31,978 nucleotides of DNA from Enterobacter phage phiT5282H: the sequence record MG589387.1. One strand, 5' to 3'. This document shows, piece after piece, positions 1 to 22,446 of the stretch (its first letter is position 1; each line of letters begins with the position of its first letter). The notes below the pieces were generated by a model. It worked only from the letters and a program-made list of their open reading frames with translations, made no database searches and was not told the origin of the DNA. A program made the translations under genes and the position numbers.

Positions 1-147
1 TTAGATGCATCGAGTGTTGGCGGAACAGGTGGCTTGAATCCTTCTCAGGGTGAAAAAATATTTTTTGATGCCTCTCGCATTGTTCCTGTGGCGTCTGAAA
101 ACAGGCCGCGCAACGTTGCATTTAACTACATCGTGAGGGCTGCATAA
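1..147 (+). CDS. H: tail fibre protein, C-terminal 48 codons (3' end of gene H; 5' part lies off the window start)
   Basis: Frame 1 is open from base 1 to TAA at 145-147. It ends 1 nt into the ATG of the tail-fibre assembly gene (TAATG overlap), as for P2 H/G. Confidence 0.65.
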   Translation, partial: LDASSVGGTGGLNPSQGEKIFFDASRIVPVASENRPRNVAFNYIVRAA

Positions 148-743
148 TGTCAGAGGCAAAATTAAACAGCAATTTTATTGCGATAGTGGCCGGTGATATT
201 ACCGTGTTTAATTACGATGGCGAAACGCGCGAGTATCTTTCCTCATCCGTTGAATACCTGGCCGTTGGGGTTGGAATTCCCGCTAACTCATGCACTGATG
301 CGCCGGGTGAAAGTAAAGAAGATTTCACTATTTGCCGGTCAGCGGATTTTACCGCCTGGGAATACGTAGCTGATCACCGTGGAGAAACGGTATATAGCAC
401 TGAAACAGGTGAAGCGGTGATTATTTCCGCCCCCGGTGATTACCCAGATGACACCACTACGCTTGCACCGCCAACGCCTTACGACACATGGAACGGCAGC
501 GAGTGGGTGACGGATACGAAAGCGCAGCACGCAGCGGATGTGGAAGCGGCGGAGCAACAGAAGGCTGCGTTACTTGCAGAGGCACAAACAACGATCAGCC
601 TATGGCAGACCGAACTACAGTTAGGCATTATCAGCGATGAAGACAAAGCCAGCTTGATAGCATGGATGAAATACATCAAAGCTGTGCAGGCTGTTGATAC
701 GTCGAAAGCGCCGGACATTACCTGGCCGGATAAGCCAGAATAA
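147..743 (+). CDS. G: tail fibre assembly protein (P2 gpG / Tfa family)
   Basis: 198-aa ORF immediately after the tail-fibre stop. Size and N-terminal sequence are typical of Tfa chaperones. Confidence 0.8.
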   Translation: MSEAKLNSNFIAIVAGDITVFNYDGETREYLSSSVEYLAVGVGIPANSCTDAPGESKEDFTICRSADFTAWEYVADHRGETVYSTETGEAVIISAPGDYPDDTTTLAPPTPYDTWNGSEWVTDTKAQHAADVEAAEQQKAALLAEAQTTISLWQTELQLGIISDEDKASLIAWMKYIKAVQAVDTSKAPDITWPDKPE

Positions 744-860
744 GTCTGCATTCCGGCACGCACTGCCAGTTTTAACTGTGCTGGCCATGTGTATCGAGTA
801 TGATCATTTTTAACGGTGCTGCAGCACGGTCAGTTATGGCGGTGTGTTACGGAAGATGAA

Positions 861-885
861 GCGGGCAAATGCCCGCTTTAGTTTT
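861..885 (+). terminator. rho-independent terminator after G (gcgggc-aaat-gcccgc followed by TTTAGTTTT)
   Basis: Perfect 6-bp GC stem with 4-nt loop and T-rich tail, seen directly. It lies in the convergent G/U gap. Confidence 0.55.
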
Positions 886-897
886 ATATGGATACCG

Positions 898-1386
898 TCA
901 GAACAGGCCAGACAGCGTACTGCTGGCGGAGTTGTAGGCGGACGTGGCTTTATCCTTCAAACCTGAAAGCAGGTCGCCAACGGACGACGCTTGCAGGCGT
1001 TCGCGTAGGTCTTCATCACAACGCTGAAAGCTGATTGAAAACTCAATTTTTTTCGCCTTCCCGTAGCGGTCAAATTCCGTATGCGTGGCCTGTAGCCCGG
1101 TCAGCACATACATACCGTAAATCTGCCCCGCACCGCTGATTAAAGGCCAGGGACGCCCGGTGTATGCCTGGGTTGCCAGAACGGTAAGAGATACGTCGCC
1201 GCCCGTAATTTCAGGGTAAAGCACCCCGTCAAGGTTGATCTGCGTCTCCCCCGCGCCGATGTACTGCCATTTTGCCGATCGGTTGATGCGATCATTCTTC
1301 ACATGGCGCCAGTTCAGCGAGTGGCGAAGTTGCTGGTAAGGCAGCGTCTTCAGTTCAAAAACGAACATCCCGTATATCATCATCAT
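898..1386 (-). CDS. U: tail protein U
   Basis: 162 aa. N-terminus MMMIYGMFVFELKTLPYQQL... resembles P2 gpU (MMMVLGLFVF.LKT.PYQ). Confidence 0.85.
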   Translation of the reverse strand: MMMIYGMFVFELKTLPYQQLRHSLNWRHVKNDRINRSAKWQYIGAGETQINLDGVLYPEITGGDVSLTVLATQAYTGRPWPLISGAGQIYGMYVLTGLQATHTEFDRYGKAKKIEFSISFQRCDEDLRERLQASSVGDLLSGLKDKATSAYNSASSTLSGLF

Positions 1387-1400
1387 AATGTTGCTTCCCC

Positions 1401-4400
1401 TTAATCTCTGTCTTTGAAGCTGCCGCGATTGAGCCGCGCAAGGCGGGCCATTTCGGCATTCACTGCGTCGGCGGCAATCCGGCCAATTTCGCGCGCGTCC
1501 TGCCGGTCAACGCCGTGAAGATGTACGTGGATTTCTCCCGTAAAGCCGCCAGTGGCAACCGGTATATTGCTGGAGCTGCGGCTGACTGGCAGAAGTTCAG
1601 CCTGTTTAACGGGAAGCGATGCCGCTACCACTGCGGGGCGTGCGCTTAACCCGTTGTTCCTGACTGTGCTGGCCAGCTGCGATTCCTTCCATTCCCCACG
1701 AACGGCCAGCGCACGAGGCAGGCTTTTAAACACGATATCGCCGGGGCCGATCTTCTTCGTGTTGTCGGCTGTCGTTTTGGTGTTGCTGTCGATACTCTGC
1801 AACCTGCGCATAGTGCCGTTATCGCCGGTTAGCGGTGATGTGGGTTGCGGTGCGCCAGGCGGAACGTTATTCACCTCAACTTTTTTCGGTGCAACCTTCG
1901 CGATATCTCCCTGAAGAAGGGCGACTTTGTCCTGAAGAACAGCCATGCGCTGTGCGTCTTCGATCTTCTTTCTGGCTTTTTCGGCCTCATCAGGCAGAAC
2001 ACCGAGCTTTTCAAGGATCCAGGCTAATGTATCCAGCAGCATTTTTGCGGGAGCCAGGACAAGCTGGAGCGCACCGCCCAGGACATTGCCGAACACCTCA
2101 CCGGCGCTGGCGCATTTATCCAGTGTTTCTTTGCTGGACTCCATCGGGGAAAGCAGAGATTTGAACCAGTTAAAGACCTGGCTAACAGCGCTGCTTATCG
2201 CATCAAAGATAGGGCTAAACTGCGCGAAGGTCTCACGTAACGGGGCCAGTCTTTCCATGATGCCGGTAAATACACCCGCAAAAAATGCTTTAAGAGGCTC
2301 CCAATAACGCCAGATAAGAACCCCGGCAGCAACAAACGCCGCTACTATCAGGCCAATCGGACTCAACAGCAGTGACAGCGCAGTACCCAGCATAGACACA
2401 GCAGTTGTGATAATGCTCCATATGGTCGTAAAACCCGTAAGGCGAAGTGCAAGCATTCCGAGGTTTTTGGTCAGTGCGCCCAGCGCGGCACCAGGCGCAA
2501 GAAATACCCCCATAAGTGCGCCACGCATAGCGGGTATGATGGTTGAAACTCCCCGCATTTTCCCTGCTAATGAGCCGAGAACTGGCCCCCATCCGCGCAC
2601 GCTTGCCATTGCCGGGCCGGAAGCCGTGCCGAGTGTTCGCAGAGCGGCAACCGTTCCGGTTATGCCTCTGCCCCCCGTCAGTATGGTAAAACCTAGCTGA
2701 AGTTTAGCCAGCGGCCCCATCAGCAGGCCGACCGCCAGCGATGTGCCACCAATGGCGGCGGTCAGTGCCAGAACACTACCACCGACAACCAGCAGAGATT
2801 GGGTGAGCTTCGGATTTTCCTTCGCCCACTGCGTCATATTCCCCACAACGTCACTCAGTCCCTGAGTCAGGGCGCGGAGCTGATTATCGACGAGATCGTT
2901 AATCTGGATGCGGAAGCCTTCCCAGGCGCTGTCCAGATTTTTGAGATCGCCATCAAGGTTATCCGCCATTATTTTGGCGGCCTTCTGCGCCTCACCTTTG
3001 GCGTTTTTCAGTGCTTCCAGCAACTTCTGGAGTTCCCCACTCCCGGCTGACATAACCAGTGCCTGCAATGACTTTGACGCCTCTTCACCGGCGATATCTT
3101 TAAAGAAAGAGAGCTTGTCGGTATCGCCGTACTTGCTGATCTTTTTATAGAGTTCAGTGAGAACCTCTTCAGCAGGGCGCATTTTCCCCGTGGCGTCAGC
3201 AACGTCTACGCCCAGTTCCTTGAGGGCGGTTTTTGCCCTGCCGGTTGGCGCGGCAAGGCGTGAAAACGCGGCCTGTAATCCTGTACCGGCGATACTACCG
3301 CGCAGGCCTACGTTCGCCATTACGCCGATCATGGCTGTTGTCTGTTCGACGCTGACGCCAAGACTGGAAAGACCTGTCCCGGCGTACTTCATCGCCTCAC
3401 CGATATTTTGCAGATCGGTGTTGGTGCGGGTGAACGCCCCCGTTAGTACGTCACTGACGCGATCCATTTCTTTGGGATCGAGACGGAACTGAGACAGAAT
3501 ATTTGAGCTGATATCGGCGCTTTCGCCTAAATCCATACCACCGGCCAGCGCCATATTGAGCACGCCGGGCAGTGCGGCCTGAATGGCCTGCGGAGTGAAA
3601 CCGGCCATAGCGAGAAACGCCTGCCCGCTGGCGGCGTCAGTCGTGGTGAACTGCGTTTCAGCGCCCAGCTTTTTGGCCTGTTCACGAAGTGCGGAAAAGT
3701 CAACGGAGCTTTTGTCTATACGGGTCAGCGCCTGCACGCGGGACATTTCCCGGTCAAACCCAACTGCGGGGGATAAGAAGCGTCCCGCTGCGTAACCGGC
3801 AGCAGTGGCCCCGGCAACGGCCATCGTGCCACCGCCGCGAAGTTTACCCGCTGTTTGCTGCATCTGGTCATAGCGCGCCCGTGCCTGTGTGACAGCGGCA
3901 AGCTGTCGCCGTTCCCGCTCCAGCGTCTGGTTGTACTGTTCGGTTCGACGTATCGCGCTCTGAATGGTGCGATCGCTGCCGACCAGCGAAACGCCGTGGC
4001 TGCGCAGCGCCTGTGAGGCAGCACGCAGCTTAACCATTTCCTGCGTGCGTGCAGAGTTAAGGCGCTCCAGCTTTGCGGCCAGCGCTGCCATATGTGCTTT
4101 TTGCTTGTCTGTAAGCTGTGTACCTTCCCGCTGCGCCTGATTCAGCCCTTCAAGCGTCCGGCTGGCTTCGTCAATTTTGCGGGAGGTCTTTTGCACGCTG
4201 TCGCGCAGACGGTTGAACGTGCGGGACTGGCTGTCCAGATCTTTAATGCTGGATTGCGTTTTTTTGAGGGATTCTGACAAACCGCCCGCGCTCTGGCGGG
4301 CGGCATTGACCGGGCGGGTAAGTTTATCGATCGCGCTGAACGCGACGCGGATATTAAGGCTTTTCACTGTCACTGGCTCCACTTCGGACAGCCGCCCGCT

Positions 4401-4403
4401 CAC
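1401..4403 (-). CDS. T: tail tape measure protein T
   Basis: 1000-aa ORF, Ala/Gly-rich with coiled-coil N-terminal half and hydrophobic glycine-rich central region. It sits between E/E' and U. Confidence 0.9.
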   Translation of the reverse strand: MSGRLSEVEPVTVKSLNIRVAFSAIDKLTRPVNAARQSAGGLSESLKKTQSSIKDLDSQSRTFNRLRDSVQKTSRKIDEASRTLEGLNQAQREGTQLTDKQKAHMAALAAKLERLNSARTQEMVKLRAASQALRSHGVSLVGSDRTIQSAIRRTEQYNQTLERERRQLAAVTQARARYDQMQQTAGKLRGGGTMAVAGATAAGYAAGRFLSPAVGFDREMSRVQALTRIDKSSVDFSALREQAKKLGAETQFTTTDAASGQAFLAMAGFTPQAIQAALPGVLNMALAGGMDLGESADISSNILSQFRLDPKEMDRVSDVLTGAFTRTNTDLQNIGEAMKYAGTGLSSLGVSVEQTTAMIGVMANVGLRGSIAGTGLQAAFSRLAAPTGRAKTALKELGVDVADATGKMRPAEEVLTELYKKISKYGDTDKLSFFKDIAGEEASKSLQALVMSAGSGELQKLLEALKNAKGEAQKAAKIMADNLDGDLKNLDSAWEGFRIQINDLVDNQLRALTQGLSDVVGNMTQWAKENPKLTQSLLVVGGSVLALTAAIGGTSLAVGLLMGPLAKLQLGFTILTGGRGITGTVAALRTLGTASGPAMASVRGWGPVLGSLAGKMRGVSTIIPAMRGALMGVFLAPGAALGALTKNLGMLALRLTGFTTIWSIITTAVSMLGTALSLLLSPIGLIVAAFVAAGVLIWRYWEPLKAFFAGVFTGIMERLAPLRETFAQFSPIFDAISSAVSQVFNWFKSLLSPMESSKETLDKCASAGEVFGNVLGGALQLVLAPAKMLLDTLAWILEKLGVLPDEAEKARKKIEDAQRMAVLQDKVALLQGDIAKVAPKKVEVNNVPPGAPQPTSPLTGDNGTMRRLQSIDSNTKTTADNTKKIGPGDIVFKSLPRALAVRGEWKESQLASTVRNNGLSARPAVVAASLPVKQAELLPVSRSSSNIPVATGGFTGEIHVHLHGVDRQDAREIGRIAADAVNAEMARLARLNRGSFKDRD

Positions 4404-4572
4404 GCCAGGCTATGACTTCGCCCAGTTCCATCGTGAAGACTTCAGAGGGCGGCCAGTTGAAAACAACCGCGATATCAGCGACCAGATCGTCGATCAGGTC
4501 GAACCGCAGGAGTGTTACTGATTCTCCGTCTCCGCCTCGTTCGATGCTCCAGACCCCGCAGGTGTCAAAAAA
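4354..4572 (-). CDS. E': E' extension of tail chaperone E+E', reached by -1 programmed frameshift; overlaps the start of T
   Basis: Minus-strand slippery heptamer T-TTT-TTG (plus 4566-4572) with zero-frame codons CCT TTT TTG (residues P-F-L 87-89 of E). The -1 frame stays open about 71 codons to TAA at 4356-4354, crossing the T start codon, as in P2. Confidence 0.6.
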   Translation of the reverse strand, partial: FFDTCGVWSIERGGDGESVTLLRFDLIDDLVADIAVVFNWPPSEVFTMELGEVIAWRERAAVRSGASDSEKP

Positions 4573-4832
4573 GGGACGAGCGCTTCTGACAGGCTGACGA
4601 AATCGCGGGTATCCATTTCATTGATTTCGATCTGTTTGAGGCGCGGTGACGTGACGCGGGTCAGCAGTACCGCCACCGAATCCACATCCATATTCATCAC
4701 GTTAACCAGCTTCAGCCCGCGCAGGGAGCCAGCCTGTTTGATCTCATCCGTGATCGTTACCTGAGTAATTTTCTCATCGCCGCGAACAACGGGTTTTACC
4801 AGCGTAATGGCGTTATCGTTTTTTTTGCTCAT
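4515..4832 (-). CDS. E: tail assembly chaperone E
   Basis: 105-aa ORF between FII and T. It contains the slippery site near its 3' end. Confidence 0.85.
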   Translation of the reverse strand: MSKKNDNAITLVKPVVRGDEKITQVTITDEIKQAGSLRGLKLVNVMNMDVDSVAVLLTRVTSPRLKQIEINEMDTRDFVSLSEALVPFLTPAGSGASNEAETENQ

Positions 4833-4880
4833 TGTTTAATACTCCGGGCGGCACGGCTGTACCGCCACTTATCAGATTAA

Positions 4881-5396
4881 TCAGTTACCCATTCCCAGCG
4901 CAGATGTAATGCGGTCAGGGTAGATATTCTTGCCGTCTTTCTTGTAGATGAAGTTCAGCAGGTCAAACTCAAACATCGGCTTGTCGTCGATGGTGAGCCT
5001 GTAATAGGTGTTCTTCATCGTGTAGCTGACGGAGGTGTCTTCTCCCTGCTTGCTTTCGCCGCCGTCCATTTCGGTGATGCGGCCGCGCAGTTCGACCTCA
5101 ACCAGCAGGCTTTCTCCATCGGTGTAATATTCACCGGCGAAGCGGAAGCGGGTTTCGTCGATATCGCCGCAGTAATTCAGCAGTAACGACTGAACCAGAC
5201 CGCCAACCACCATCGTGGTATCCAGTGCGCCACTGTCCAGACCGAGATCCACCGCAGCGGAGCCAATCATCCCGCCGCCCTGAAAGTCTTCAGTCTTGCG
5301 GGTCAGTTTTGGCAGCGTCACGGAAGAGACTTTGCCGATGCAGTTGCTGCCGTTCACAAAGCAGGTGAACAGGCGCAGTTTGTGAGGAACCGCCAT
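4881..5396 (-). CDS. FII: major tail tube protein FII
   Basis: 171 aa, directly downstream of the sheath gene. Tube-like sequence. Confidence 0.9.
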   Translation of the reverse strand: MAVPHKLRLFTCFVNGSNCIGKVSSVTLPKLTRKTEDFQGGGMIGSAAVDLGLDSGALDTTMVVGGLVQSLLLNYCGDIDETRFRFAGEYYTDGESLLVEVELRGRITEMDGGESKQGEDTSVSYTMKNTYYRLTIDDKPMFEFDLLNFIYKKDGKNIYPDRITSALGMGN

Positions 5397-6578
5397 TTAT
5401 GCACCTCCCAGGGAAGAAAACGCCGATTCGAAATACTCGTCCGTGAAGGTCTGGTAGAGCGTCAGATCTTCCATAGGCGGAACCGGTGTGTATTTATAGC
5501 GAATGCGTACCTGACCCTGACGGAGACCGGTTGTCGGGTTATCCAGGATATCAAACCAGCATTCAGCACCAATTAGCCGCCCCTGCGTCACCAGCGAATT
5601 GAGTTTGCCGCTGATGCCGCTGACCACGTCCTTAACGTTGGCAGGGGTCAGCGGTTCGTCCACTGATTCAAATTGCGCCTCAGCGATACTGTCAGCCAGA
5701 ATCTGTGCCGTTCGGGTATAAACCTCAAAGATATAATCTTTGGTGTCTGTAACGCGGTTGCCCCAGAACCGGAAACCGTTACGCTTGATGAGCGTCGTGA
5801 TCTCCTTGTTGTTCAGTTCGTTCGCGTCGCTGTCTTCGGCCTGAAGCGACCAGAAAACATCCTGTGAAATACCCAGCACGTTGCTTACCGACACATTGGA
5901 AAGCGATTTGTGCCAGCCCTGATTGTTGTCAATCAGAGCGCGAAGGCCGCAGGCATAGGCCGGGGCAGGGAAGGTTTCGTTTTCTCCTGTCTGCGGGTTG
6001 TATGCGATGAAATCAGGCCAGATAAGCATTAGCTCGCGATAGGCGAAGGTCGCACGATATGCGGTGGCTTCAGCCATCGTTTTGCATCCATAGCAACTGG
6101 CGTAAACAAACGCGCGCAGGTTTTGTGCAATGACGCACAGCGCGGAGGTCACTTCTTCCGTGTCGTAGCCCGGCACAGCCAGAATGCGCGGACGATAGCC
6201 GACCTTCTGCTCGGCAGTCAGAAACGCGTACATGCCGGTATAGCTGCCGTCTTCTGCCGTGCCACCCATGATGAGCTGCGACTGCGTTTTACTGCCTTCC
6301 TCTTCCGTGGCTGCTGCCACGCGCACAACGATAACCTTCGGACTGGTCTGGTCAGCGATGGCTTTGAGTGTTTTGTACAGGGAGCCGGTTTTACCCGCCT
6401 TACCCAGCACGTTGTTAACCCGCGTCAGCAACACGGGGGTATTCAGGGGAAAGGTTTCCGCGTCGGCATCATCCGCCACGGCAACGACCCCAATGACACT
6501 AGATTCAATGTCATTGATGGCCGTCACCAGGTCGGTATTCTCCCGGACGCGTACACCGTGGAAACGTGTCTCTGACAT
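5397..6578 (-). CDS. FI: tail sheath protein FI
   Basis: Start MSETRFHGVRV..., comparable to P2 FI MSDYHHGVQV. GGTGG RBS lies 8 nt upstream. The annotated ORF extends to 6623, but the internal ATG at 6578 is preferred. Confidence 0.85.
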   Translation of the reverse strand: MSETRFHGVRVRENTDLVTAINDIESSVIGVVAVADDADAETFPLNTPVLLTRVNNVLGKAGKTGSLYKTLKAIADQTSPKVIVVRVAAATEEEGSKTQSQLIMGGTAEDGSYTGMYAFLTAEQKVGYRPRILAVPGYDTEEVTSALCVIAQNLRAFVYASCYGCKTMAEATAYRATFAYRELMLIWPDFIAYNPQTGENETFPAPAYACGLRALIDNNQGWHKSLSNVSVSNVLGISQDVFWSLQAEDSDANELNNKEITTLIKRNGFRFWGNRVTDTKDYIFEVYTRTAQILADSIAEAQFESVDEPLTPANVKDVVSGISGKLNSLVTQGRLIGAECWFDILDNPTTGLRQGQVRIRYKYTPVPPMEDLTLYQTFTDEYFESAFSSLGGA

Positions 6579-6648
6579 GTTAGCCACCATTACGTTATTG
6601 AGTTCGCAGTGATAATCCCTCATGTCTGAACGCTACTCACGCTATTGC

Positions 6649-6678
6649 GGGTCTGGCCGGACGGCGACAACAAAAACC
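6649..6678. promoter_or_regulatory. putative Ogr-type late promoter activator element (GGTCTGGCC-N6-CGACAACAAAAACC; contains TCT-N12-ACA dyad) between divergent FI and D
   Basis: Near-identical element also at 22351-22379 between divergent P and O. It is centred about 55 bp from plausible start sites on both sides. Confidence 0.45.
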
Positions 6679-6731
6679 GATTTGGTCTCTCCCGCGCGCG
6701 TGGGATCCTTCGCCGGAAGAAGGGGGAAAGC

Positions 6732-7868
6732 ATGGCACTTACAGACCTGACTAAATCACTTAACGACGCCGGCAGCAGTTATAACGATTCACTGACCGAG
6801 GCAGTAAAAAGTCCGGGATTCAGCATTACGATGGGTGGCAAGGTACTGACGCAGCTTGATGATCGGATCATGTCGTTGTCACTGACGGACAATCGGGGTT
6901 TTGATGCCGATCAGCTGTCAATATCCATTGATGACAGTGATGGCATGGTTGCACTGCCGCCGCGTGGTGCTGAGCTTGCCGTATCATTTGGCTGGCTGGG
7001 TGAACCGCTGATTTACAAGGGGCTGTACACGGTTGACGAGGTTTCCCACGAAGGCCCGGCAGATACCATTGGCGTTACTGCCCGCAGCGCTGATTTTCGT
7101 GAAGAATTCAACGTAAAGCGCGAAGTCTCATGGCATGACGTGACCGTTGAGCGCGTTGTGTCGGCAATAGCGCACCGATACGGACTGAAGGCGCAGATCA
7201 GTGAAATGCTCATGGATATTGAGATTGATCACGCCGACCAGACGCAGGAAAGCGATATGTCTTTCCTTACCCGCATGGCGGAAATGCTGGGTGCAATTGC
7301 CACCGTCAAGAACGGCAGTCTGCTGTTTATTCTGCCGGGTGGTGGTTTGACCGCTGACGGAAAGGCGCTACCTTCTGCCAGCATTGACCGCACCAGTGGC
7401 GACCGGCACCGCTTTCGTATTGCCGATCGGGATGCGTATACCGGCGTCAGGGCTTACTGGCTGGATCTCAATTTCGGTAAAAAGAAAAAGGTCAGCGTTA
7501 AGCGCCGTAAGTCTGTAAAGCCCAAAAAAGAGAAGAGCAGCAGCCGTGAGGGCGATTACATGGAGGGCGCAGACGGTAACGTCTATGTGCTGCGCAAAAC
7601 CTACCAGAATGAAGAGGCGGCTAAACGTGCGGCGGCGGCAAAGTGGCAGCAGCTTCAGCGTGGCGCGGCAGAGTTTTCGATCACCCTGGCGCGTGGCCGC
7701 GCTGAGCTTTACCCGGAAATGCACGTGACGGTTAGCGGTTTTAAGGATGAAATAGATAATCAGGACTGGATCATTGCGCGTGCTGAGCACGTCATAGACG
7801 ACAGCGGTTTTACCACCCGGCTGGAGCTGGAAGCAAAAATACCTGACTGGATAGCGGAAACTGAATAA
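6732..7868 (+). CDS. D: tail protein D (late control gene D family)
   Basis: Start MALTDLTKSL with AAGGGGGAAAG RBS. About 378 aa, followed directly by ogr as in P2. Confidence 0.9.
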   Translation: MALTDLTKSLNDAGSSYNDSLTEAVKSPGFSITMGGKVLTQLDDRIMSLSLTDNRGFDADQLSISIDDSDGMVALPPRGAELAVSFGWLGEPLIYKGLYTVDEVSHEGPADTIGVTARSADFREEFNVKREVSWHDVTVERVVSAIAHRYGLKAQISEMLMDIEIDHADQTQESDMSFLTRMAEMLGAIATVKNGSLLFILPGGGLTADGKALPSASIDRTSGDRHRFRIADRDAYTGVRAYWLDLNFGKKKKVSVKRRKSVKPKKEKSSSREGDYMEGADGNVYVLRKTYQNEEAAKRAAAAKWQQLQRGAAEFSITLARGRAELYPEMHVTVSGFKDEIDNQDWIIARAEHVIDDSGFTTRLELEAKIPDWIAETE

Positions 7869-7907
7869 AATGAAATGGAGTTCAACTCCCACAGGGGAGC
7901 CATCATT

Positions 7908-8156
7908 ATGTTCAGATGTCCATTCTGCGGCGCTATGGCCCGCACCCGTACCAGCCGTAAAATAACCGATATGACAATCCGTCAATATCACCAGTGTCAG
8001 AATCTGGAATGTAGCCGGTCATTCACCACGCTTAACAGCGTGGAAAGGGAAGTAACAAAACGCGCAGGTACAGCGCCGTTACCGCCTGACTTTATCCCCC
8101 GCGATGCCTTCCCGGCGTCTCACTATGGAAAGGATCAGCTAAATCTAGCCCTCTAA
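7908..8156 (+). CDS. ogr: Ogr/Delta-family zinc-finger late transcription activator
   Basis: MFRCPFCGAMARTRTSRKITDMTIRQYHQCQNLECSRSF matches the P2 Ogr C-X2-C...C-X4-C motif (MFHCPLCQHAAHARTSRYITDTT..YHQCQNVNCS). Confidence 0.85.
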   Translation: MFRCPFCGAMARTRTSRKITDMTIRQYHQCQNLECSRSFTTLNSVEREVTKRAGTAPLPPDFIPRDAFPASHYGKDQLNLAL

Positions 8157-8195
8157 CGCTACGCCAAATGACGGGGCCAAGGAGATGGTCGCCCC

Positions 8196-8229
8196 ACCCT
8201 GTGAGCGGTACGCTGGCAGGGTGTTTTCT
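8196..8229 (+). terminator. rho-independent terminator after ogr (accctg...cagggt, then GTTTTCT)
   Basis: Stem with an extended internal AGCG/CGCT pairing and a T-rich tail, seen in sequence. Confidence 0.5.
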
Positions 8230-8268
8230 ATTAATTCAATGTCTAATCGAAAAATTAGTAAGATATTA

Positions 8269-9066
8269 TTATAAGGATGAGCTTTTGATTTTTTTTGAAG
8301 GATCCATCATATATGTGGTTATAGTATTATCCTGATCTACTTCTACTATCCTAAATCCATGATAATCAGTTCCCCAACTTCCACCAAAGTGACCATCAAA
8401 TACAAATGGGATATCATTTTTTATTAACACTTCGTCATGGTCATGGTCGTGACCATTGAATACAGCTTTAACATTTTTGTATTCTGATAGTAGAGAAAGG
8501 AGTTGATCGCATTCAACGGCAAAGTGAGTTTGCGCTACAGGATTAATATGCATAAATATAAATACATTTTCTTTTGCTTTGTGCTCTCTTAGTTTGTTAG
8601 TTAGCCAAGAGAGATCGGGACAAAGATACGTGCCAGCTAAATCTGACGTAGACATGATTAAAAAGGCATTTCTATCAATCGTGAAATCAAAGTCCATAGG
8701 ATAGCCCCATATATTCACCCATTCTTCTGGAGTGGCGGGGTCATGATTTCCTTTACTTACAAAATATTTCATTGAAAGCAAATCTAACTGTTTTTTTGCG
8801 GGTTGAAAGTATTTTTTATCATCATGCACAATATCGCCATTAATGACGCAAAAATCGACGTTATTGTTTTTGCTAAATTCATTAACCGCGCTAACAAAAA
8901 CGCTGTAGTTTTTCTTATAATCAGTGATTTTTTCACCATAATGACCATCTGACGCGATAGCAAATCGAAGTTTTTTATCGCTGTTAGCTTTGTTAGCGCC
9001 ACCAAAGAAATCGCAACCAGATAAAGCAACTCCTGCTGATAGAATTAAAAAATCACGCCTATTCAT
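8269..9066 (-). CDS. Tat-signal lipoprotein, calcineurin-like metallophosphoesterase (moron/cargo gene)
   Basis: Start MNRRDFLILSAGVALSGCDF carries an RRxFL twin-arginine motif and an LSGC lipobox. GAGGTGG RBS is upstream. Phosphoesterase motifs DGHYG, GDIVHDD, GNHD, GHDHDHD are present. The region is conspicuously AT-rich compared with flanking phage genes. Confidence 0.8.
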   Translation of the reverse strand: MNRRDFLILSAGVALSGCDFFGGANKANSDKKLRFAIASDGHYGEKITDYKKNYSVFVSAVNEFSKNNNVDFCVINGDIVHDDKKYFQPAKKQLDLLSMKYFVSKGNHDPATPEEWVNIWGYPMDFDFTIDRNAFLIMSTSDLAGTYLCPDLSWLTNKLREHKAKENVFIFMHINPVAQTHFAVECDQLLSLLSEYKNVKAVFNGHDHDHDEVLIKNDIPFVFDGHFGGSWGTDYHGFRIVEVDQDNTITTYMMDPSKKIKSSSL

Positions 9067-9145
9067 ATTGTTAGCCACCTCATTAGCAAAAATTGCGGAT
9101 ATTGTAGCAAACATAAGCGTTTTTGTTACGTTTTCAGCCAAAAGC

Positions 9146-9178
9146 AATGAAGCCAAACCTATGACGTTTGGCTTCATT
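9146..9178. repeat. 13-bp perfect inverted repeat AATGAAGCCAAAC-N7-GTTTGGCTTCATT
   Basis: Seen directly. It lies upstream of the moron promoter (-35 GTAACA / -10 TACAAT candidates) and downstream of the int operon on the minus strand. Confidence 0.5.
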
Positions 9179-9186
9179 ATGTCGAA

Positions 9187-9207
9187 GTGTAGTCAAGATG
9201 TAGACGA
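9187..9207 (+). repeat. direct repeat copy 1 GTGTAGTCAAGATGTAGACGA (candidate Int arm-type site, contains tandem TGTAG(T/A)C)
   Basis: 19/21 identical to 9383-9403, about 196 bp away, flanking the ogr-int intergenic (attP) region. Confidence 0.45.
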
Positions 9208-9271
9208 AGATTAGAATAAATCCTTTTATTCCATTGTGTTACTGGCTGGATTCCTTCACCATCCCTGTCTT

Positions 9272-9298
9272 CCCCCACATGATGTGGGGGTTTTTTTT
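9272..9298 (+). terminator. strong rho-independent terminator (cccccac-atgat-gtggggg + T8)
   Basis: 7-bp GC-rich stem, 5-nt loop, 8 T's. It is unidirectional on the plus strand and lies inside the presumed attP. Confidence 0.7.
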
Positions 9299-9382
9299 AT
9301 CAGGCACTTAGAAAAAATCCCTTATAAATCAATCCTCCTTGCAACAGCCATAAGCAGTTACAAGAAGGATAAAGCGCTAAGG

Positions 9383-9403
9383 GTGTAGACAAGATGTAGA
9401 CAA
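9383..9403 (+). repeat. direct repeat copy 2 GTGTAGACAAGATGTAGACAA (candidate Int arm-type site)
   Basis: See copy 1. It lies 6 bp from the int stop codon. Confidence 0.45.
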
Positions 9404-9408
9404 CATTG

Positions 9409-10389
9409 TCACACCATCAGCCCGCCGCCAAGAGGGTTTAAAGTTACTGCGTGTTGCAGGTAATCAGGTGCAAGGTGAGCATAAACCATCGTCTGTTGTA
9501 TGCTGGCGTGCCCCAGAATTTGCTGTAACGCAATAATGTTCCCCCCGTTCATCATGAACCAGCTTGCAAATGTATGCCGAAGCACATGCGTGGCCTGCCC
9601 GCGTGGTAAATCGGGCTTAACCTGTCTGAGCCGTTCGCAGAAGTTTTCATAGTCAACTTTGAACAATGGCCCGGTGTCGCTGGTCTTGATCTCTTTCTCC
9701 AGTTCTTCCGATATGGGAACCGTGCGCTTTTTCCCGTTTTTGGTCTTAAGGAACGTCACGCGCCCGTGATTAACCTGCTCACCTCGCAGCGTGCTGCCTT
9801 CACCCCAGCGTGCGCCAGTGCTGAGGCATAGCAGTGCTACACGTCGATCGTCGCCGGTCAGAGTATCCAGCAATTTGCTGATCTCTGATTTGGCGAGATA
9901 AGTCATAGCTGGCGGCGCTTCTTTCAGTGGTTCCAGACCCTTACAGGGGTTTTCCTTTCTGAACTCTTCCAGCTTTATCAACGTGCTGAACATCCCGGAC
10001 AAACGGTAAATATCCCGGTTGATCGTTGCTGCGCTGATACCGTCTTCCAGCCGTTGGCTTCGGTGCTGTGCAATCATTCGCTTGTTCAGTCGGTTAACGG
10101 CTGGATCACCAAGCGCCCTGATTGTTTTATTCAGGTGCCGCTTTTCAATCTCGCCATTTTCCTGAGTCTGTCCATATAGCAGCCACCAGGTATCTAACAA
10201 CTCGCTTAAGGTGCGGCGGTCAACGCTCGCGCCCAGCCATTCTTTTTTGTCGGCGTTGGCTAATACATAACGCTCAAAAAGAACTGCCTCTTGTTTCTTC
10301 TCAAATCGCCTGCGGATACGTTTTCCGTTACGTCCGCGCGGCCATACGTCCACTTCATATTGACCACCTTCGAGCTTCTTAATCGACAT
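9409..10389 (-). CDS. int: tyrosine integrase (P2 Int-like)
   Basis: 326 aa. C-terminal catalytic region ...ATHVLRHTFASWFMMNGGNIIALQQILGHASIQQTMVYAHL with the R..H..R..Y pattern. Confidence 0.9.
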   Translation of the reverse strand: MSIKKLEGGQYEVDVWPRGRNGKRIRRRFEKKQEAVLFERYVLANADKKEWLGASVDRRTLSELLDTWWLLYGQTQENGEIEKRHLNKTIRALGDPAVNRLNKRMIAQHRSQRLEDGISAATINRDIYRLSGMFSTLIKLEEFRKENPCKGLEPLKEAPPAMTYLAKSEISKLLDTLTGDDRRVALLCLSTGARWGEGSTLRGEQVNHGRVTFLKTKNGKKRTVPISEELEKEIKTSDTGPLFKVDYENFCERLRQVKPDLPRGQATHVLRHTFASWFMMNGGNIIALQQILGHASIQQTMVYAHLAPDYLQHAVTLNPLGGGLMV

Positions 10390-10458
10390 AAGAAAGCCCT
10401 CCGGCGTTTATTTCCCCATCCTGATAACAGATAGTGAAAATGTAATGTTTATAAACAG

Positions 10459-10779
10459 TTAACCAGTTTGTTTCTCGGAGCGGTCTGATCCAGTTGACTC
10501 TGGCCCAATGTGTGCGAGGGCCGGTGCGATTTGACCAGCTTGAGGGGCGGTCTTATCAGTCATAAGCCAGAGCGTGTATTTTGCGAAACGTGAATGCTGA
10601 GTGATCTTAAGCAAGATATCGCTACCAATACTCTCCACTCTTCCTGTCTCGTAATACTTCTGCGTGCCAGCAGGTATTCCAGTTAATTCAAAGAATTGCT
10701 GCCTTGTTAACCCCTCCGCATCCCTGATAGCTCTGATTTTTTCACCCACGCCGCTTGACGGGGTAGGGATCTCTACCAT
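10459..10779 (-). CDS. C: immunity repressor C (HTH)
   Basis: EKIRAIRDAEGLTRQQFFELTGI...KYTLWLMTDKTAPQAGQIAPALAHIG parallels P2 C (EKIVLMRKSEYLSRQQLADLTGV...KYTLWFMTNQIAPESGQIAPALAHFG). The ATG at 10779 has an AAGGAG RBS. The longer annotated ORF (to 10818) is produced by a repeat. Confidence 0.85.
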   Translation of the reverse strand: MVEIPTPSSGVGEKIRAIRDAEGLTRQQFFELTGIPAGTQKYYETGRVESIGSDILLKITQHSRFAKYTLWLMTDKTAPQAGQIAPALAHIGPESTGSDRSEKQTG

Positions 10780-11897: not shown

Positions 11898-12110
11898 ATG
11901 ACCAGACGTGATCAATATAGCTTCATTTTGCATGTTCTTTTACCTGCTATCGAAAATGAAGGTTTAACCATTAAAACCCGCCGTGATGGCGAGTTAACCC
12001 TTTCTGCCAGTGGGTCAGTAACCACCAATTTTATAAGCAATCTGCGCCAGCACTGCATTGAAGAGTTGCAGCGCCCTTCTATTCCAGCTTCCCATTACGG
12101 AGTCCTGTAA
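11898..12110 (+). CDS. hypothetical 70-aa protein, translationally coupled to dam
   Basis: Good RBS (GAGGAAGAGATAATG). Its stop lies 1 nt before the dam ATG. Confidence 0.5.
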   Translation: MTRRDQYSFILHVLLPAIENEGLTIKTRRDGELTLSASGSVTTNFISNLRQHCIEELQRPSIPASHYGVL

Positions 12111-12111
12111 A

Positions 12112-13083
12112 ATGATCCGCCCGTTCATCAAATGGGCAGGGGGTAAAACCCGTGTCCTTCCTGACCTGCTGCCGCACCTTCCTAAAGCCGACTGCCTGAT
12201 CGAACCGTTCGTAGGCGGCGCATCGGTATTTCTGGCGACTGAATACCGCCGCTATGTGCTGGCTGATATCAACCCGGATCTTATTAACCTGTATCGGGAA
12301 GTCACCCGTTACCCGGACTTAGTGATCGATGCGGCCCGCGAACTGTTCAACAGTAAGAACAGCCCGCAGGGATACAACGAAGTCCGCGCCGCGTTCAATA
12401 AGCAGGTGGGTACGGTTAAAAGCGGTGGGTTGCGTTATGGCGCTGAAATGGCGTGCATCATGCGTGCTGCTCAATTCCTGTATCTGAACCGCCACGGTTA
12501 TAACGGCTTATGCCGTTACAGCCGTAAGACCGGCTTTAACGTGCCGTTTGGCAAGTATAAGAGCGTCTACTTTCCTGAAAATGAAATCCGCCTGTTTGCC
12601 GAAAAGGCCAACGATACAAAGGCAATATTTCTTTGCGCGCCGTTCCAGCGTTCTTTACAGGTCGTCACGGGTGGCGATGTTCTCGTTTACTGCGATCCGC
12701 CTTATCTGCCTGAGAGCAAAACAGCGGACTTCACCCAATACCATACCGAACCATTCACGGAAGACAACCACCGCCAGTTAGTCCAGGCACTGCTGGAAGT
12801 TAACCGTAAGCATGGCGTGAAGGTCGTCATTTCAAACAGCGACACCGAAGCCACCCGCGCGATTTATCAGCCCTTCAAGATGCACGAAATCAGCGTACAA
12901 CGCTCCGTCAGCACCGACAAAGACAACCGCCAGAAGGCCAAAGAAGTGATCGGCGTGCTGACTGTCTGCGACTGCTGCGGGCGTTACGGCGGCGGTTGCC
13001 CTGATTGTGGCGCCGTGATGGGTGATGCGACTTACAACGCGATGGTTGCGGCGGGCACGTTTGACGATCTGGAGGCTTTTTAA
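12112..13083 (+). CDS. dam: DNA adenine methyltransferase (Dam/D12 class) with Cys-rich C-terminal tail
   Basis: Motifs IKWAGGK, FVGGASV (motif I) and DPPY (motif IV). C-terminal ...CDCCGRYGGGCPDCG... cluster. Confidence 0.9.
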   Translation: MIRPFIKWAGGKTRVLPDLLPHLPKADCLIEPFVGGASVFLATEYRRYVLADINPDLINLYREVTRYPDLVIDAARELFNSKNSPQGYNEVRAAFNKQVGTVKSGGLRYGAEMACIMRAAQFLYLNRHGYNGLCRYSRKTGFNVPFGKYKSVYFPENEIRLFAEKANDTKAIFLCAPFQRSLQVVTGGDVLVYCDPPYLPESKTADFTQYHTEPFTEDNHRQLVQALLEVNRKHGVKVVISNSDTEATRAIYQPFKMHEISVQRSVSTDKDNRQKAKEVIGVLTVCDCCGRYGGGCPDCGAVMGDATYNAMVAAGTFDDLEAF

Positions 13084-15631: not shown

Positions 15632-15733
15632 ATTTTATGCTGATTATCCATACAGTAAAAAAGTGAGGATACTCTTTGAATAACGTTATTCAGAGTGGTA
15701 AGATTAGGCATTAATTTTCATTAACATAGTTAC

Positions 15734-15749
15734 CAACTTATGTAAGTTG
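15734..15749. promoter_or_regulatory. perfect 16-bp palindrome CAACTTA-TG-TAAGTTG about 20 bp upstream of the ATPase start
   Basis: Seen directly in the AT-rich 137-bp gap after gene A. Candidate operator. Confidence 0.45.
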
Positions 15750-15768
15750 ATGTTTTATTGGGGGTTTT

Positions 15769-16851
15769 ATGGTAAATGTGCGGGAGGATGAACTTTTCAA
15801 ACTCATCGAGCAAGGCATCAAAGGCAACGCAAATGCATTTACACTCCTATGCAGAAAGATGATTAACAACATCCGTAAAAATGATGAGACCTTAGCTTCT
15901 AAGCTGGCTTCGTTAGTTGCTGAGGGAACAGTATTGCGTGGGGCATCTAGTAATGCTCCTATGCCTGTGGATGGAGACTCCAGACGAAACCTTTTGCAGG
16001 AAACATCTGTCAACGCAATTGTTGAAGAACCTGTATGGAATTCGGATATCTCAAAGAAGCTGGAGTCAATTGTTAACGAAAGAGAGAATGCAGTTTCTTT
16101 GTTCAAAGCCGGTCTTGAACCTGTAAAAACGGTTTTACTTTCTGGCCCGCCAGGCGTAGGCAAAACAATGTCCGCACATTGGCTTGCTGCAAAGTTAAAT
16201 TTACCTCTTTTAACATTGGATCTCTCATCTGTAATGAGTTCTCTTTTGGGAAAAACAGGCAATAATATTAAATCCGTTATGGATTATGCCAAAGAGAAAC
16301 CATGTGTCCTTTTGCTTGATGAATTTGATGCTGTTGCAAAAAGACGTGATGATGACAGGGACGTTGGAGAATTAAAACGTTTAGTTACTGTACTCCTACA
16401 GACCATAGATGAATGGCCAGCGACCTCGCTTCTTGTTGCTGCGACTAATCACCCTGATATCTTAGATCCGGCTGTTTGGCGTCGATTTGAGCATATCCTT
16501 AAATTTAATATGCCATCAGTAGAACTGATAGATAGATATTTAGTTAATCATGATATTGAGCCTGAATTATCTAAAAAACTTGCACCATTATTAGATGGCA
16601 TGTCCTTTGCCATTATTAACCGTATTTTGAATTTCTCCAAAAAGAATGAAGTGCTTAGAAATGTTCCATTTGAAAGTTCATTAATAGAGGCCGTAGTTAC
16701 GGAGAGGGTTTCATTGGATGATTTTAGCGATAATGATCTCAATATAATTAAATATCATTTTGACGGTATTTCAAATAGGAAGATAGCTGAATTAGTTGGT
16801 GTTTCACATCCAACAATCGCGAATAAATTACAAAAGTGGGGGGTTAAATGA
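15769..16851 (+). CDS. classical AAA+ ATPase with C-terminal HTH (LuxR/sigma-70 region-4-like) domain
   Basis: Walker A LLSGPPGVGKTM, Walker B CVLLLDEFD, sensor/second region of homology VAATNHPDILDPAVWRRFE. C-terminal ISNRKIAELVGVSHPTIANKLQKWG. GGGGG RBS. Low GC. Confidence 0.85.
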   Translation: MVNVREDELFKLIEQGIKGNANAFTLLCRKMINNIRKNDETLASKLASLVAEGTVLRGASSNAPMPVDGDSRRNLLQETSVNAIVEEPVWNSDISKKLESIVNERENAVSLFKAGLEPVKTVLLSGPPGVGKTMSAHWLAAKLNLPLLTLDLSSVMSSLLGKTGNNIKSVMDYAKEKPCVLLLDEFDAVAKRRDDDRDVGELKRLVTVLLQTIDEWPATSLLVAATNHPDILDPAVWRRFEHILKFNMPSVELIDRYLVNHDIEPELSKKLAPLLDGMSFAIINRILNFSKKNEVLRNVPFESSLIEAVVTERVSLDDFSDNDLNIIKYHFDGISNRKIAELVGVSHPTIANKLQKWGVK

Positions 16852-19052
16852 TGGAAAGGAACTTACTTTTAGGTAACGGTCATGTTCTAACAAAAAAGGA
16901 ACCTTTGCCTAAAGGAAGGGATGGTAAGCGCTATCCCTATACTCTTGAAGAAGTAAGGGAGCATTTAAACCCCGAGATTGATACTTTACTCTCACGCTTT
17001 CGCAGTTTGGATGATGCGGCTAAGCCAAGGGGTGAGAGTGTATTCAATTTAACTTTACACCCAGCGTTTTTAGGTAAAAGCTACTTTCCTGAAGGGTTGC
17101 TTAGAGCGACAGGTTTACGGGATGTCGGTAGCCGTCAGGTAATCATTCGCCCACGGAAAGCGGCGCGTCAGTCCGATCAGAATAAGGACTTAGTAACGGC
17201 GCAACTGTTTGTCAGCGGTGATGATGATGCCGTTATAAGATTTAAGGAAATTTTAAATTCCCCTACAGCTCCGAAGGGCGTACAAAAGGATTTGATCGAA
17301 ATTGAAAGTGTTAGCTTTTTTGAAGGAAAAGAGAGAGCACGCAATTTTGAGCATGCGAAAAGTGATTTGATAAAATTTGAAGTGGTTCTTCATGCTGGGG
17401 TTGAAGACGATGATATCGTTAAAGCCTATATTAACTATGCGGCACAATATGGCGTCTCTGTTGATTACAAAAGTAAAATTCAAGTTGGTGGGCTGACTTT
17501 CATCGTTGCACACGCACGACCTGAAGATATGAAAAAAACCCTCGATTTTTCATTAATCCGCGTTGTGCGGCCGATGCCGTCTCTAAGGTGTACTCAGCCG
17601 AACATTGTCAGAAAGTTATCTAATATAGTTACACCGGAGTTCCCTAATTCTAAAGCTGTTCTTGAATCCGAACGTATTGCAATTTTTGACGGTGGCTTGG
17701 GGACAGCTGACTTAAGTAATTGGGTTACGGAATACGTGTATCCAGACACCAAAGAGACAAGCGGATTATTATTGCAGCACGGTAATGAAGTAACATCAAC
17801 TTTCTTATTCGGACGTGTCGAGGAAAATGCACCTTCTTTTGAAAGACCGTTTATGAATGTTGATCATTATAGAGTTCTTTCACCAACATCAGGTGACAAT
17901 GGCGATTGGGATTTGTTTGATGTCCTTAAGAAAATTCAGTCCGTTCTTGATAGTGGTGACTATAAGTTCGCTAATCTAAGTATTGGTCCTCATCTTCCAA
18001 TTGGCGATGATGAGGTTCATGCATGGACTGCTGTTTTAGACCAAATCTGTGCTAAGCATGGGATATTACTTACTGTTGCTGTTGGGAATGATGGTCATGA
18101 GGACGGTGATGCAGCGAGAATACAACCTCCTTCCGATATGGTAAACGCGCTAGCGATTGGTGCTGCTGATCGTAGCGGTGAAAAATGGGGGCGGGCACCA
18201 TATAGCTGTATTGGCCCTGGCAGAAGCCCCGGATTCGTTAAACCTGATGGTGTTATTTTTGGTGGAAGCGACGACGAGCCTTTTTACACTTACAACCCGC
18301 TGCTTGGTTCTATAGTCGGAGTTCAAGGAACCAGTTATGCCTCTCCATTAGCATTGAGAACGGCCGCTGGAGTTGCGGCTCTATCAGGAACCCCATTGAA
18401 CACCATTGCATTGAAAGCGTTGCTTGTTCATCATGCTGAAACATCAAGAAAATATTCGCGTGAACATATCGGTTGGGGACGGTTTAGTGAAGATCCTAAC
18501 GTTTTAATCGATTGTGCGAATGATACTGCTACAGTAATTTACTATGGTTCATTAGCAAAAAATAAATATTTAAGGGCACCGATCCCATTCCCCGATGTTC
18601 CCTTTGACGAAGCATTTGAGCTTACCGCTACTTTATGCATTCAAACCCCAGTTGATCCTGAACATTCAGTAAACTATACAAGGGCCGGTATGCAGGTAAC
18701 TTTCCGTCCAAGATTCGGCCTTGACGATGCCGATACTGATGATTTCTTTGGTCAAAAAAGCCAGTATAAGACCGAAAGGGAGTGTAGGAGTGAAGGTCAT
18801 AAGTGGGAAACTTGCTTGCACAGAAGCAAAAAATTCAGTGCTGATACATTATTAAGCGATCCAGTTTTTGATATACGGTATCACGCCCGAGATTCTTCGC
18901 GCCATGTTAAGGGGGTTTCAGCCCCTGATATGCAATATGCGATGGTAATAAGCGTAAGGGTAAAAGACTTTGATTTATATAATGTTATTCGCCAGCGATA
19001 TACAATTCTAAATCCTATTCAACTGCGCACACAGATTTCTCTCGACACGTAA
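16848..19052 (+). CDS. large cytoplasmic subtilisin-like (S8) serine protease with about 270-aa N-terminal and about 200-aa C-terminal domains of unknown function
   Basis: Catalytic residues in order: D in AIFDGGLGT, H in LQHGNEVTS, N in AVGNDGHE, S in GTSYASP. No signal peptide. ATGA overlap with the ATPase stop. Confidence 0.85.
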   Translation: MMERNLLLGNGHVLTKKEPLPKGRDGKRYPYTLEEVREHLNPEIDTLLSRFRSLDDAAKPRGESVFNLTLHPAFLGKSYFPEGLLRATGLRDVGSRQVIIRPRKAARQSDQNKDLVTAQLFVSGDDDAVIRFKEILNSPTAPKGVQKDLIEIESVSFFEGKERARNFEHAKSDLIKFEVVLHAGVEDDDIVKAYINYAAQYGVSVDYKSKIQVGGLTFIVAHARPEDMKKTLDFSLIRVVRPMPSLRCTQPNIVRKLSNIVTPEFPNSKAVLESERIAIFDGGLGTADLSNWVTEYVYPDTKETSGLLLQHGNEVTSTFLFGRVEENAPSFERPFMNVDHYRVLSPTSGDNGDWDLFDVLKKIQSVLDSGDYKFANLSIGPHLPIGDDEVHAWTAVLDQICAKHGILLTVAVGNDGHEDGDAARIQPPSDMVNALAIGAADRSGEKWGRAPYSCIGPGRSPGFVKPDGVIFGGSDDEPFYTYNPLLGSIVGVQGTSYASPLALRTAAGVAALSGTPLNTIALKALLVHHAETSRKYSREHIGWGRFSEDPNVLIDCANDTATVIYYGSLAKNKYLRAPIPFPDVPFDEAFELTATLCIQTPVDPEHSVNYTRAGMQVTFRPRFGLDDADTDDFFGQKSQYKTERECRSEGHKWETCLHRSKKFSADTLLSDPVFDIRYHARDSSRHVKGVSAPDMQYAMVISVRVKDFDLYNVIRQRYTILNPIQLRTQISLDT

Positions 19053-22350: not shown

Positions 22351-22379
22351 TGGTCTGGCCTTCCTCCGACAACAAAACC
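22351..22379. promoter_or_regulatory. putative late promoter activator element (TGGTCTGGCC-N6-CGACAACAAAACC; TCT-N12-ACA) between divergent P and O
   Basis: Second copy of the 6649-6678 element. It is centred about 52-57 bp from plausible transcription start sites of both P and O. Confidence 0.45.
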
Positions 22380-22446
22380 TCGTTGAGACAGCAAGTTACG
22401 CTCTGCCATCATGGCCGTACAGAAACCACTCAACAGGATTATCGAC

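Follow-up and report, generated by a model that had tools for sequence, protein, structure and literature searches.

In the P2-like phages P2 (Peduovirus) and 186 (Eganvirus), tail genes FI, FII, E/E′, T, U, and D are co-directional with H and G and form one operon that is transcribed from pF (P2) or pJ (186) and ends after ogr/B. The four Ogr-dependent late promoters of P2 are reported to have the consensus TGT-N12-ACA (PMC3931495). In the RefSeq record of P2, a single feature, at 3057–3087, is labelled "activator binding site; pO, pP promoters"; the mapped starts of the P operon (3016) and the O operon (3127) are 111 bp apart, each ~55 bp from the center of this site. Here, we compare these arrangements with that of Enterobacter phage phiT5282H (sequence record MG589387.1), the whole 31,978-nt stretch of which is referred to as the window. 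The window contains the same gene set as P2 and 186, including a TTTTTTG −1 frameshift site in E/E′, and resembles them in the position of a putative ogr-proximal promoter, in the geometry of the predicted promoter of FI (P_F), and in the proposed principle that one site serves divergent pP and pO promoters. It differs in that the genes from FI to U are inverted, D has a putative promoter side of its own, and a separate P_V spacer is lacking; protein identity is ~50%. FI through U occupy the minus strand and G, D, and ogr the plus strand, so the canonical P2/186 order does not apply.

The window holds the complete genome of a temperate P2-like (Peduoviridae) phage in circularly permuted form. 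The permutation follows from the H reading frame, which runs unbroken through the end of the window into positions 1–146 and terminates in FNYIVRAA and a stop codon immediately 5′ of G. FI, FII, E, T, U, D, and Ogr all score above the Pfam gathering scores (Table 1). An initial annotation of this DNA had proposed that the FI-FII-E/E′-T-U block is inverted relative to P2, and the gene identities and strands, read alongside the canonical P2 and 186 records, bear this out. As it had also stated, D is cut off from the F operon, and the convergent junction between G, the final gene of the long rightward late operon, and U, the final gene of the leftward F operon, contains a terminator hairpin. Alignments with homologues begin at both the FI and the D ATG, the lengths of insertions and deletions upstream of these starts in relatives are not divisible by 3, and Shine-Dalgarno sequences accompany the starts. 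Because FI starts at 6578 and D at 6732, the divergent spacer between them (FI–D spacer) measures 153 bp, exactly as first reported. The TTTTTTG heptamer lies upstream of T at 4572–4566, in the correct X XXY YYZ frame, and is identical to that at the annotated frameshift site of P2. The −1 frame of E′ is homologous to P2 E′ and the E/E′ pair is intact; E+E′ is predicted to be made by a −1 frameshift at this heptamer. The true start of T may be slightly downstream of the start of the longest open reading frame, overlapping the end of E′. Two other starts matter for reading promoter geometry. O most likely begins at the ATG at 22450, which aligns with residue 1 of P2 gpO, the longest-frame start at 22411 being wrong, and ogr most likely begins at 7908 rather than at the longest-frame start, 7875. 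The Ogr homologue contains the CX2CX22CX4C motif, which is given as the zinc-finger motif of Ogr/Delta proteins (PMC3931495).

The layout of the window is ordinary: it is the normal, fixed order of a large and common P2-like group that includes P88, SEN4/5, and many prophages. Scanning one genome per species with the D protein yielded 52 loci, and gene order was then read by tblastn with the full set of nine proteins. The inverted layout is universal among loci with a D at least 63% identical to that of the window (36/36, a count that includes four phages), and every locus with a D of at most 50% identity has the P2 order (14/14). D identity is 63–99% within the clade and at most 52% outside it, leaving a clean gap. 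Hosts of the clade fall into ~19 genera of Enterobacterales: Pantoea, Kosakonia, Enterobacter, Izhakiella, Mixta, Erwinia, Trabulsiella, Symbiopectobacterium, Serratia, Kluyvera, Klebsiella, Edwardsiella, Pectobacterium, Brenneria, Citrobacter, Salmonella, Rouxiella, Escherichia, and the unclassified Enterobacteriaceae isolate LSJC7. Simple neighbor-joining trees of FI and D each place every inverted locus in one clade nested among lineages with the P2 order, which fits a single ancestral inversion. By layout, by spacer, and by the position of FI and D in these trees, the window belongs to a large P88/SEN4/3LV2017-like clade. The initial annotation had implied that the order is unusual; the 36 loci that share it make it typical of the lineage. 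Likewise, the divergent spacer described there as new is new relative to P2 and old within the clade, where it is conserved at 143–157 bp in 31 of the 36 loci. One more locus (L029) comes from a record labelled as the Gram-positive Vagococcus sp. WN89Y, yet it is a P88-like enterobacterial prophage; the label probably reflects assembly contamination or mislabelling.

The same arrangement is found in isolated phages spanning five genera of the International Committee on Taxonomy of Viruses (ICTV). Annotated phages with exactly the layout of the window are SEN5 (Senquatrovirus), 500465-2 (Gemsvirus), ST16-OXA48phi5.4 (Reipivirus), and P88 (Xuanwuvirus). Cross-tabulation of tblastn matches to FI and D revealed 40 phage records in which the two genes lie on opposite strands ~150–190 bp apart, among them 3LV2017 (Reginaelenavirus), PhiSM, Chuche, PhiR44_2, P884B11, and Serratia KSP20. 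P88, PhiSM, SEN4/5, and PP4/KSP20 are inducible and/or plaque-forming (PMC5285337, PMC6456863, PMC5261728, PMC9826266), and the layout is therefore viable. A 1.3-kb query spanning the FI–D junction of P88 is contiguous in 1109 of 5426 complete E. coli genomes (~20%). The complete chromosome of Pantoea stewartii ATCC 8199 carries the nearest relative of the window, a prophage with 94% nucleotide identity over positions 895–8149; megablast of window positions 1–9000 against phage records returned no close phage.

Comparison with individual members of the clade shows where the window stands within it. Order and strands identical to those of the window occur in P88, PhiSM (Citrobacter), 500465-2, ST16-OXA48phi5.4 (Klebsiella), 3LV2017 (Klebsiella), and KSP20/PP4 (Serratia), and the FI–D spacers of this P88 group (145–151 bp) carry the GACAACAAAAA motif and a TG-extended −10 element, as does the window. 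Protein identity between this group and the window is 74–80% for FI and 73–79% for D. Differences lie in the interval between G and U, which holds a DNA invertase and an invertible fiber segment in P88 and 500465-2 and DUF262 cargo in ST16-OXA48phi5.4, whereas in the window it has only 154 bp comprising a ~95-nt element and the terminator. In DNA, the window is closest to prophages of Pantoea, Enterobacter, Mixta, Kosakonia, Izhakiella, and Erwinia, with no phage record close to it. SEN4/SEN5 (Salmonella) have the same inverted layout, a 157-bp FI–D spacer with a perfect TGT-N12-ACA, and a copy of the ~95-nt element in the G/U spacer that is 85% identical to that of the window. The structural proteins of SEN5 are distant from those of the window (FI 58%, D 63%, U 54%). 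Unlike the window, SEN5 has a second copy of the ~95-nt element between endolysin and spanin and a gap between S and V; SEN4 likewise carries the element twice.

Two intergenic regions of the window, the FI–D spacer and the divergent P–O spacer, share a 26-nt motif, GGTCTGGCC-N6-CGACAACAAAA, that occurs exactly twice in the window and is not expected at all in shuffled sequences; the initial annotation had noted the same activator-like motif in both spacers, and these are its sole copies. The core of the FI–D copy, TCT-N12-ACA, is separated from a −10-like hexamer and from the FI ATG by distances like those in P2. In an alignment of 30 distinct FI–D spacers of the clade, the right half-site, GACAACAAAAA, is nearly invariant, and at the equivalent column a perfect TGT-N12-ACA is present in SEN5, Rouxiella, Brenneria, and Pectobacterium. 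On the FI side, the hexamer pattern xAxxAT of the predicted P_F −10 is conserved across the clade; it lies 43.5 bp from the dyad center and 33 nt from the FI ATG, which matches P2 pF, a promoter with a mapped start, within 1 bp (44.5 bp and 32 nt). In the direction of FI, the site reads TGT-N12-AGA, a sequence compatible with the TGT-N12-CCA of P2 pF. On the D side, an invariant TG is followed, after a single intervening base, by a hexamer of the form nAnnnT in all 30 sequences (GATCCT in the window, AATCAT in many relatives). This hexamer lies 42.5 bp from the dyad center with almost no intervening insertions or deletions, mirroring P2 pO. The predicted starts of P_F and of the rightward promoter of D (P_D) are ~110 bp apart around the activator site. 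With O starting at 22450, the P–O spacer of the window matches the geometry of P2 pP/pO as well, with TG-C-CATCAT at the equivalent distance. The orientation of the activator site toward FI was considered as a means of distinguishing a simple inversion from a duplication of the P/O region, and was dropped because the dyad makes orientation uninformative. Small open reading frames annotated as hypothetical proteins in the FI–D spacers of SEN5 (15702–15854) and P88 (2529–2660) overlap the conserved promoter and activator region and are probably spurious.

These comparisons suggest a model in which the unit consisting of P_F, FI, FII, E/E′, T, and U was inverted once in the ancestor of the clade and then fixed, leaving H–G to converge on U at the terminator and FI to diverge from D–ogr. 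The late genes would then most likely be transcribed from two control regions that, like P2 pP/pO, are bidirectional and depend on Ogr, each containing one partially dyad-symmetric site ~55 bp upstream of two divergent starts. From the sequences, we infer that Ogr binds these sites and that a single site serves both promoters. The site at 6650–6675 would activate leftward transcription of FI to U from P_F and rightward transcription of D from P_D, a promoter specific to the clade. Because ogr begins 39 nt after D, transcripts from P_D probably run on into ogr. In P2, F-operon transcripts also continue into ogr, and a terminator after ogr is annotated for both. P2 likewise has annotated ogr −35 and −10 elements just upstream of ogr, at the position of the sigma-70-like match in the window. 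The site at 22352–22377 would do the same for leftward transcription of P and Q (from P_P) and rightward transcription of O through G (from P_O). Genes S and V overlap at an ATGA (28647–28650), which leaves no room for a P_V spacer; this overlap, together with the lack of a third copy of the motif, suggests that O through G, which span ~10 kb across the window end, are probably one unit. We consider this explanation as a whole, a single inversion fixed in the clade and late genes served by two bidirectional Ogr-dependent regions, highly probable. It is tempting to speculate that the inversion placed the Ogr site of P_F beside D and that the opposite face of the site was recruited as the new P_D, thereby creating a second region resembling pP/pO, a scenario to which we give even chances.

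Several observations weigh against parts of this explanation. The trees of FI and D are midpoint-rooted and carry no support values. An explicit description of the inversion was not found in the papers on P88, PhiSM, SEN4/5, and PP4; because no paper discussing it was found, the layout counts as known on the basis of deposited genomes. The left half-site in the window is TCT, one mismatch from the TGT of the consensus, and the four exact matches to TGT-N12-ACA in the window are fewer than expected by chance, none of them lying in either spacer. The start sites of P_F and P_D are extrapolated from P2. Finally, GATCCT is a poor −10 hexamer, and the FI-side region is near-palindromic (GATAATC) and can be read equally well as a rightward sigma-70 −10 element, GATAAT, that would give D a long leader. 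The latter reading belongs to an alternative in which D and ogr are neither late nor Ogr-dependent: they would be transcribed from this sigma-70 promoter (−35 ATTACG; −10 GATAAT at 6611–6616 on the plus strand) or only from the ogr-proximal promoter, and the activator site would serve FI alone, as in P2 pF. GATAAT matches the −10 consensus at 5 of 6 positions, and its A2, T3, and T6 are conserved on the plus strand, while the proposed P_D hexamer is weak. However, D encodes an essential structural tail protein that is expressed from a late promoter in P2, and a 109-nt leader running across the activator site would collide with P_F. Also against the alternative are the clade-invariant TG and hexamer at a mirror-image distance from the dyad, the same architecture in P2 pP/pO, for which the annotation gives a single site serving both directions, and the TG-n-CATCAT at equal distance on the P_O side of the window. 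We therefore regard a sigma-70 origin of D transcripts as unlikely and favor an Ogr-dependent P_D.

The inverted order itself is stable and is neither a switch nor an assembly error. Misorientation of the 5.7-kb block during contig assembly has nothing specific to recommend it beyond the generic risk attached to a single metagenomic or viral contig, here a circularly permuted one. Both junctions are collinear, at 88–98% identity, in independent assemblies from at least 6 species that include complete chromosomes (the G/U spacer, at 88–93% identity, with prophages of Kosakonia, Izhakiella, Mixta, Erwinia, and Enterobacter); all 36 members of the clade share the layout, the homologous junction recurs in the 1109 E. 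coli genomes, and both spacers hold conserved, functional-looking signals. The chance of an artefact is thus practically nil, and the initial annotation was right to treat the arrangement as native. The block might instead be a programmed invertible segment, like Mu G, P1 C, or the P88 tail-fiber switch, of which the window records one state; P88 and 500465-2 do have a DNA invertase gene adjoining U, and phage 186 has a fiber gene with a Mu-like crossover site. The 154-bp G/U spacer of the window contains no invertase gene, however, and has no room for an open reading frame. No inverted repeat of at least 9 nt links the two junctions, which have in common one 8-mer, the level expected by chance; a search for inverted or direct repeats as a footprint of recombination found only 8–9-mers, also at chance level. 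None of 36 relatives has the opposite orientation, and flipping the block would deprive FI of its promoter and set D directly against the 3′ end of U, with no overlap of the kind that P2 shows. A switch of this kind is accordingly very improbable. A recurrent hot spot, with several independent inversions in place of one ancestral event, draws some plausibility from the G–FI interval, a known P2 insertion hot spot (Z/fun) with varied cargo in relatives, and from Smp131, another P2-like phage that shows late-gene rearrangements (PMC3931495). The confinement of all inverted loci to one clade in both trees, the clean gap in D identity (≥63% versus ≤52%), and an FI–D spacer that is homologous and alignable over the whole clade make repeated inversion improbable, and argue for a single ancestral event.

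The G/U spacer, one edge of the inverted block, holds two distinct features. The hairpin, AAGCGGGCA-AA-TGCCCGCTT, is followed on the plus strand by the T-run TTTAGTTTTAT; it is a strong terminator for the G operon, whereas the U-tract of the minus strand is weak. Upstream lies the ~95-nt element, in which three of the four ACNGTGCTG 9-mers are direct and one is inverted. The element is more conserved than the genes that flank it: SEN5 and the window are 85% identical in the element, versus 40% for G and 54% for U (protein). A pattern scan of IMG/VR recovered 37 copies at 35 loci, almost always on contigs about the size of a P2-like genome. Two contexts recur, the G/U spacer (14 copies) and the short stretch that follows endolysin K immediately and ends close to the start codon of the spanin gene (~20 copies); in both, the element is always co-oriented with the late O..G operon. 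Further copies lie upstream of a DNA methylase gene that follows gene A in 3LV2017 and SW5, and a Brenneria prophage has one between FII and E. In a Trabulsiella prophage (L045, ~9900–9990), a reversed copy between P_D and D lengthens the spacer from 153 to 232 bp. The element is rare in E. coli genomes (32/5426, with 1–4 copies each). No credible RNA family was found in Rfam, either with the whole window at gathering thresholds or with positions 700–950 at E values up to 10, a tRNA search found none, and inspection of the G/U element by eye disclosed no convincing sigma-70 or sigma-54 promoter. RNAalifold predicted one 8-bp hairpin with almost no covariation, weak support for structure; z-scores of single-sequence folds were −2.8 and −3.2. 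The ~95-nt element apparently acts as a small intergenic module that is mobile or prone to recombination; it could represent a mobile or regulatory element, small and so far undescribed, that is confined to P2-like phages.

Table 1 Coordinates of features in the window and of copies of the ~95-nt element in related loci.
Feature	Coordinates	Strand	Details
H, tail fiber gene, 3′ end	1–146	+	Gene start near 31090; wraps around window end
G, tail fiber assembly protein	147–743	+	Pfam Caudo_TAP, E value 2.4e-38
G/U intergenic spacer	744–897		Convergent; one edge of inverted block
Conserved ~95-nt intergenic element	767–850	+	Two ~38-nt units; four ACNGTGCTG 9-mers; near-invariant TATCGAG and CAGCAC
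Rho-independent terminator hairpin, AAGCGGGCA-AA-TGCCCGCTT	859–878	+	9-bp, G+C-rich; predicted
U, tail protein	898–1386	−	Pfam Phage_P2_GpU, E value 3.7e-39
T, tape measure protein	1401–4403	−	Longest open reading frame; Pfam PhageMin_Tail, E value 1.9e-53
E+E′ frameshift product	4354–4832	−	159 aa, end 4354; predicted −1 shift
E, tail assembly chaperone	4515–4832	−	Pfam Phage_TAC_7
FII, tail tube	4881–5396	−	Pfam Phage_tube, E value 1.2e-44
FI, tail sheath	5397–6578	−	393 aa from ATG 6578; Pfam sheath domains
FI–D divergent spacer	6579–6731		153 bp; other edge of inverted block
Predicted −10 of P_F, GATTAT	6612–6617	−	Predicted start ~6605
Activator motif, GGTCTGGCC-N6-CGACAACAAAA, putative Ogr-type site	6650–6675	+	Core TCT-N12-ACA 6652–6669, center 6660.5
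Predicted extended −10 of P_D, TG-G-GATCCT	6700–6708	+	Predicted start ~6715
D, baseplate hub/late control D	6732–7868	+	378 aa from ATG 6732; Shine-Dalgarno AAGGGGGA; Pfam Phage_GPD
Sigma-70-like promoter, CTGACT-17-TAAAAT	7843–7871	+	Consensus match only
ogr homologue	7908–8156	+	82 aa; Pfam Ogr_Delta; Met aligned with P2 Ogr Met1
Activator motif, other copy, P–O spacer	22352–22377	+	Sole second occurrence in window
~95-nt element copies, SEN5 (L001)	2535–2611; 10025–10103		
~95-nt element copy, L058	2501–2576		
~95-nt element copy, L059	2501–2563		
~95-nt element copy, L026	8019–8095		

Elsewhere in the window, positions 9177–10500, the integrase region, are 95% identical in DNA to SEN5 (98% for the integrase protein), and the tail proteins of the two phages are 54–63% identical, a contrast that points to a clear recombination mosaic. 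A calcineurin-like metallophosphoesterase gene (8269–9177, minus strand) lies in a low-G+C island (0.39) between ogr and int and is likely cargo at the ogr/att boundary. A D12-class N6-adenine DNA methyltransferase gene (12058–13083, plus strand) lies upstream of gene A in the early operon. Positions 15769–19052 (plus strand; G+C 0.38–0.45) encode the anti-phage defence system composed of IetA (AAA ATPase, E value 1.9e-88) and IetS (subtilase, E value 1.9e-41); these genes separate replication gene A from portal gene Q and occupy the place that old/tin has in P2.

As a discovery the inverted layout matters little, since it is the standard one of its clade and is already present in GenBank and in ICTV-classified genomes; the only mildly novel angles are the second bidirectional Ogr-type region proposed here and the conserved intergenic element. 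For annotation, D and ogr are not to be assumed part of the F operon in this clade, and the 145–157-bp FI–D spacer is best regarded as a late control region. If the proposed regulation is correct, the entire late regulon would comprise four transcription units controlled from only two activator sites. An Ogr-activated P_D that reads into ogr ~1.2 kb downstream would, in addition, constitute a short positive-feedback loop, compared with the 6.6-kb read-through from pF in P2. The clade also provides a natural setting in which to test whether two divergent promoters can share one Ogr-type site, the arrangement annotated for pP/pO of P2.

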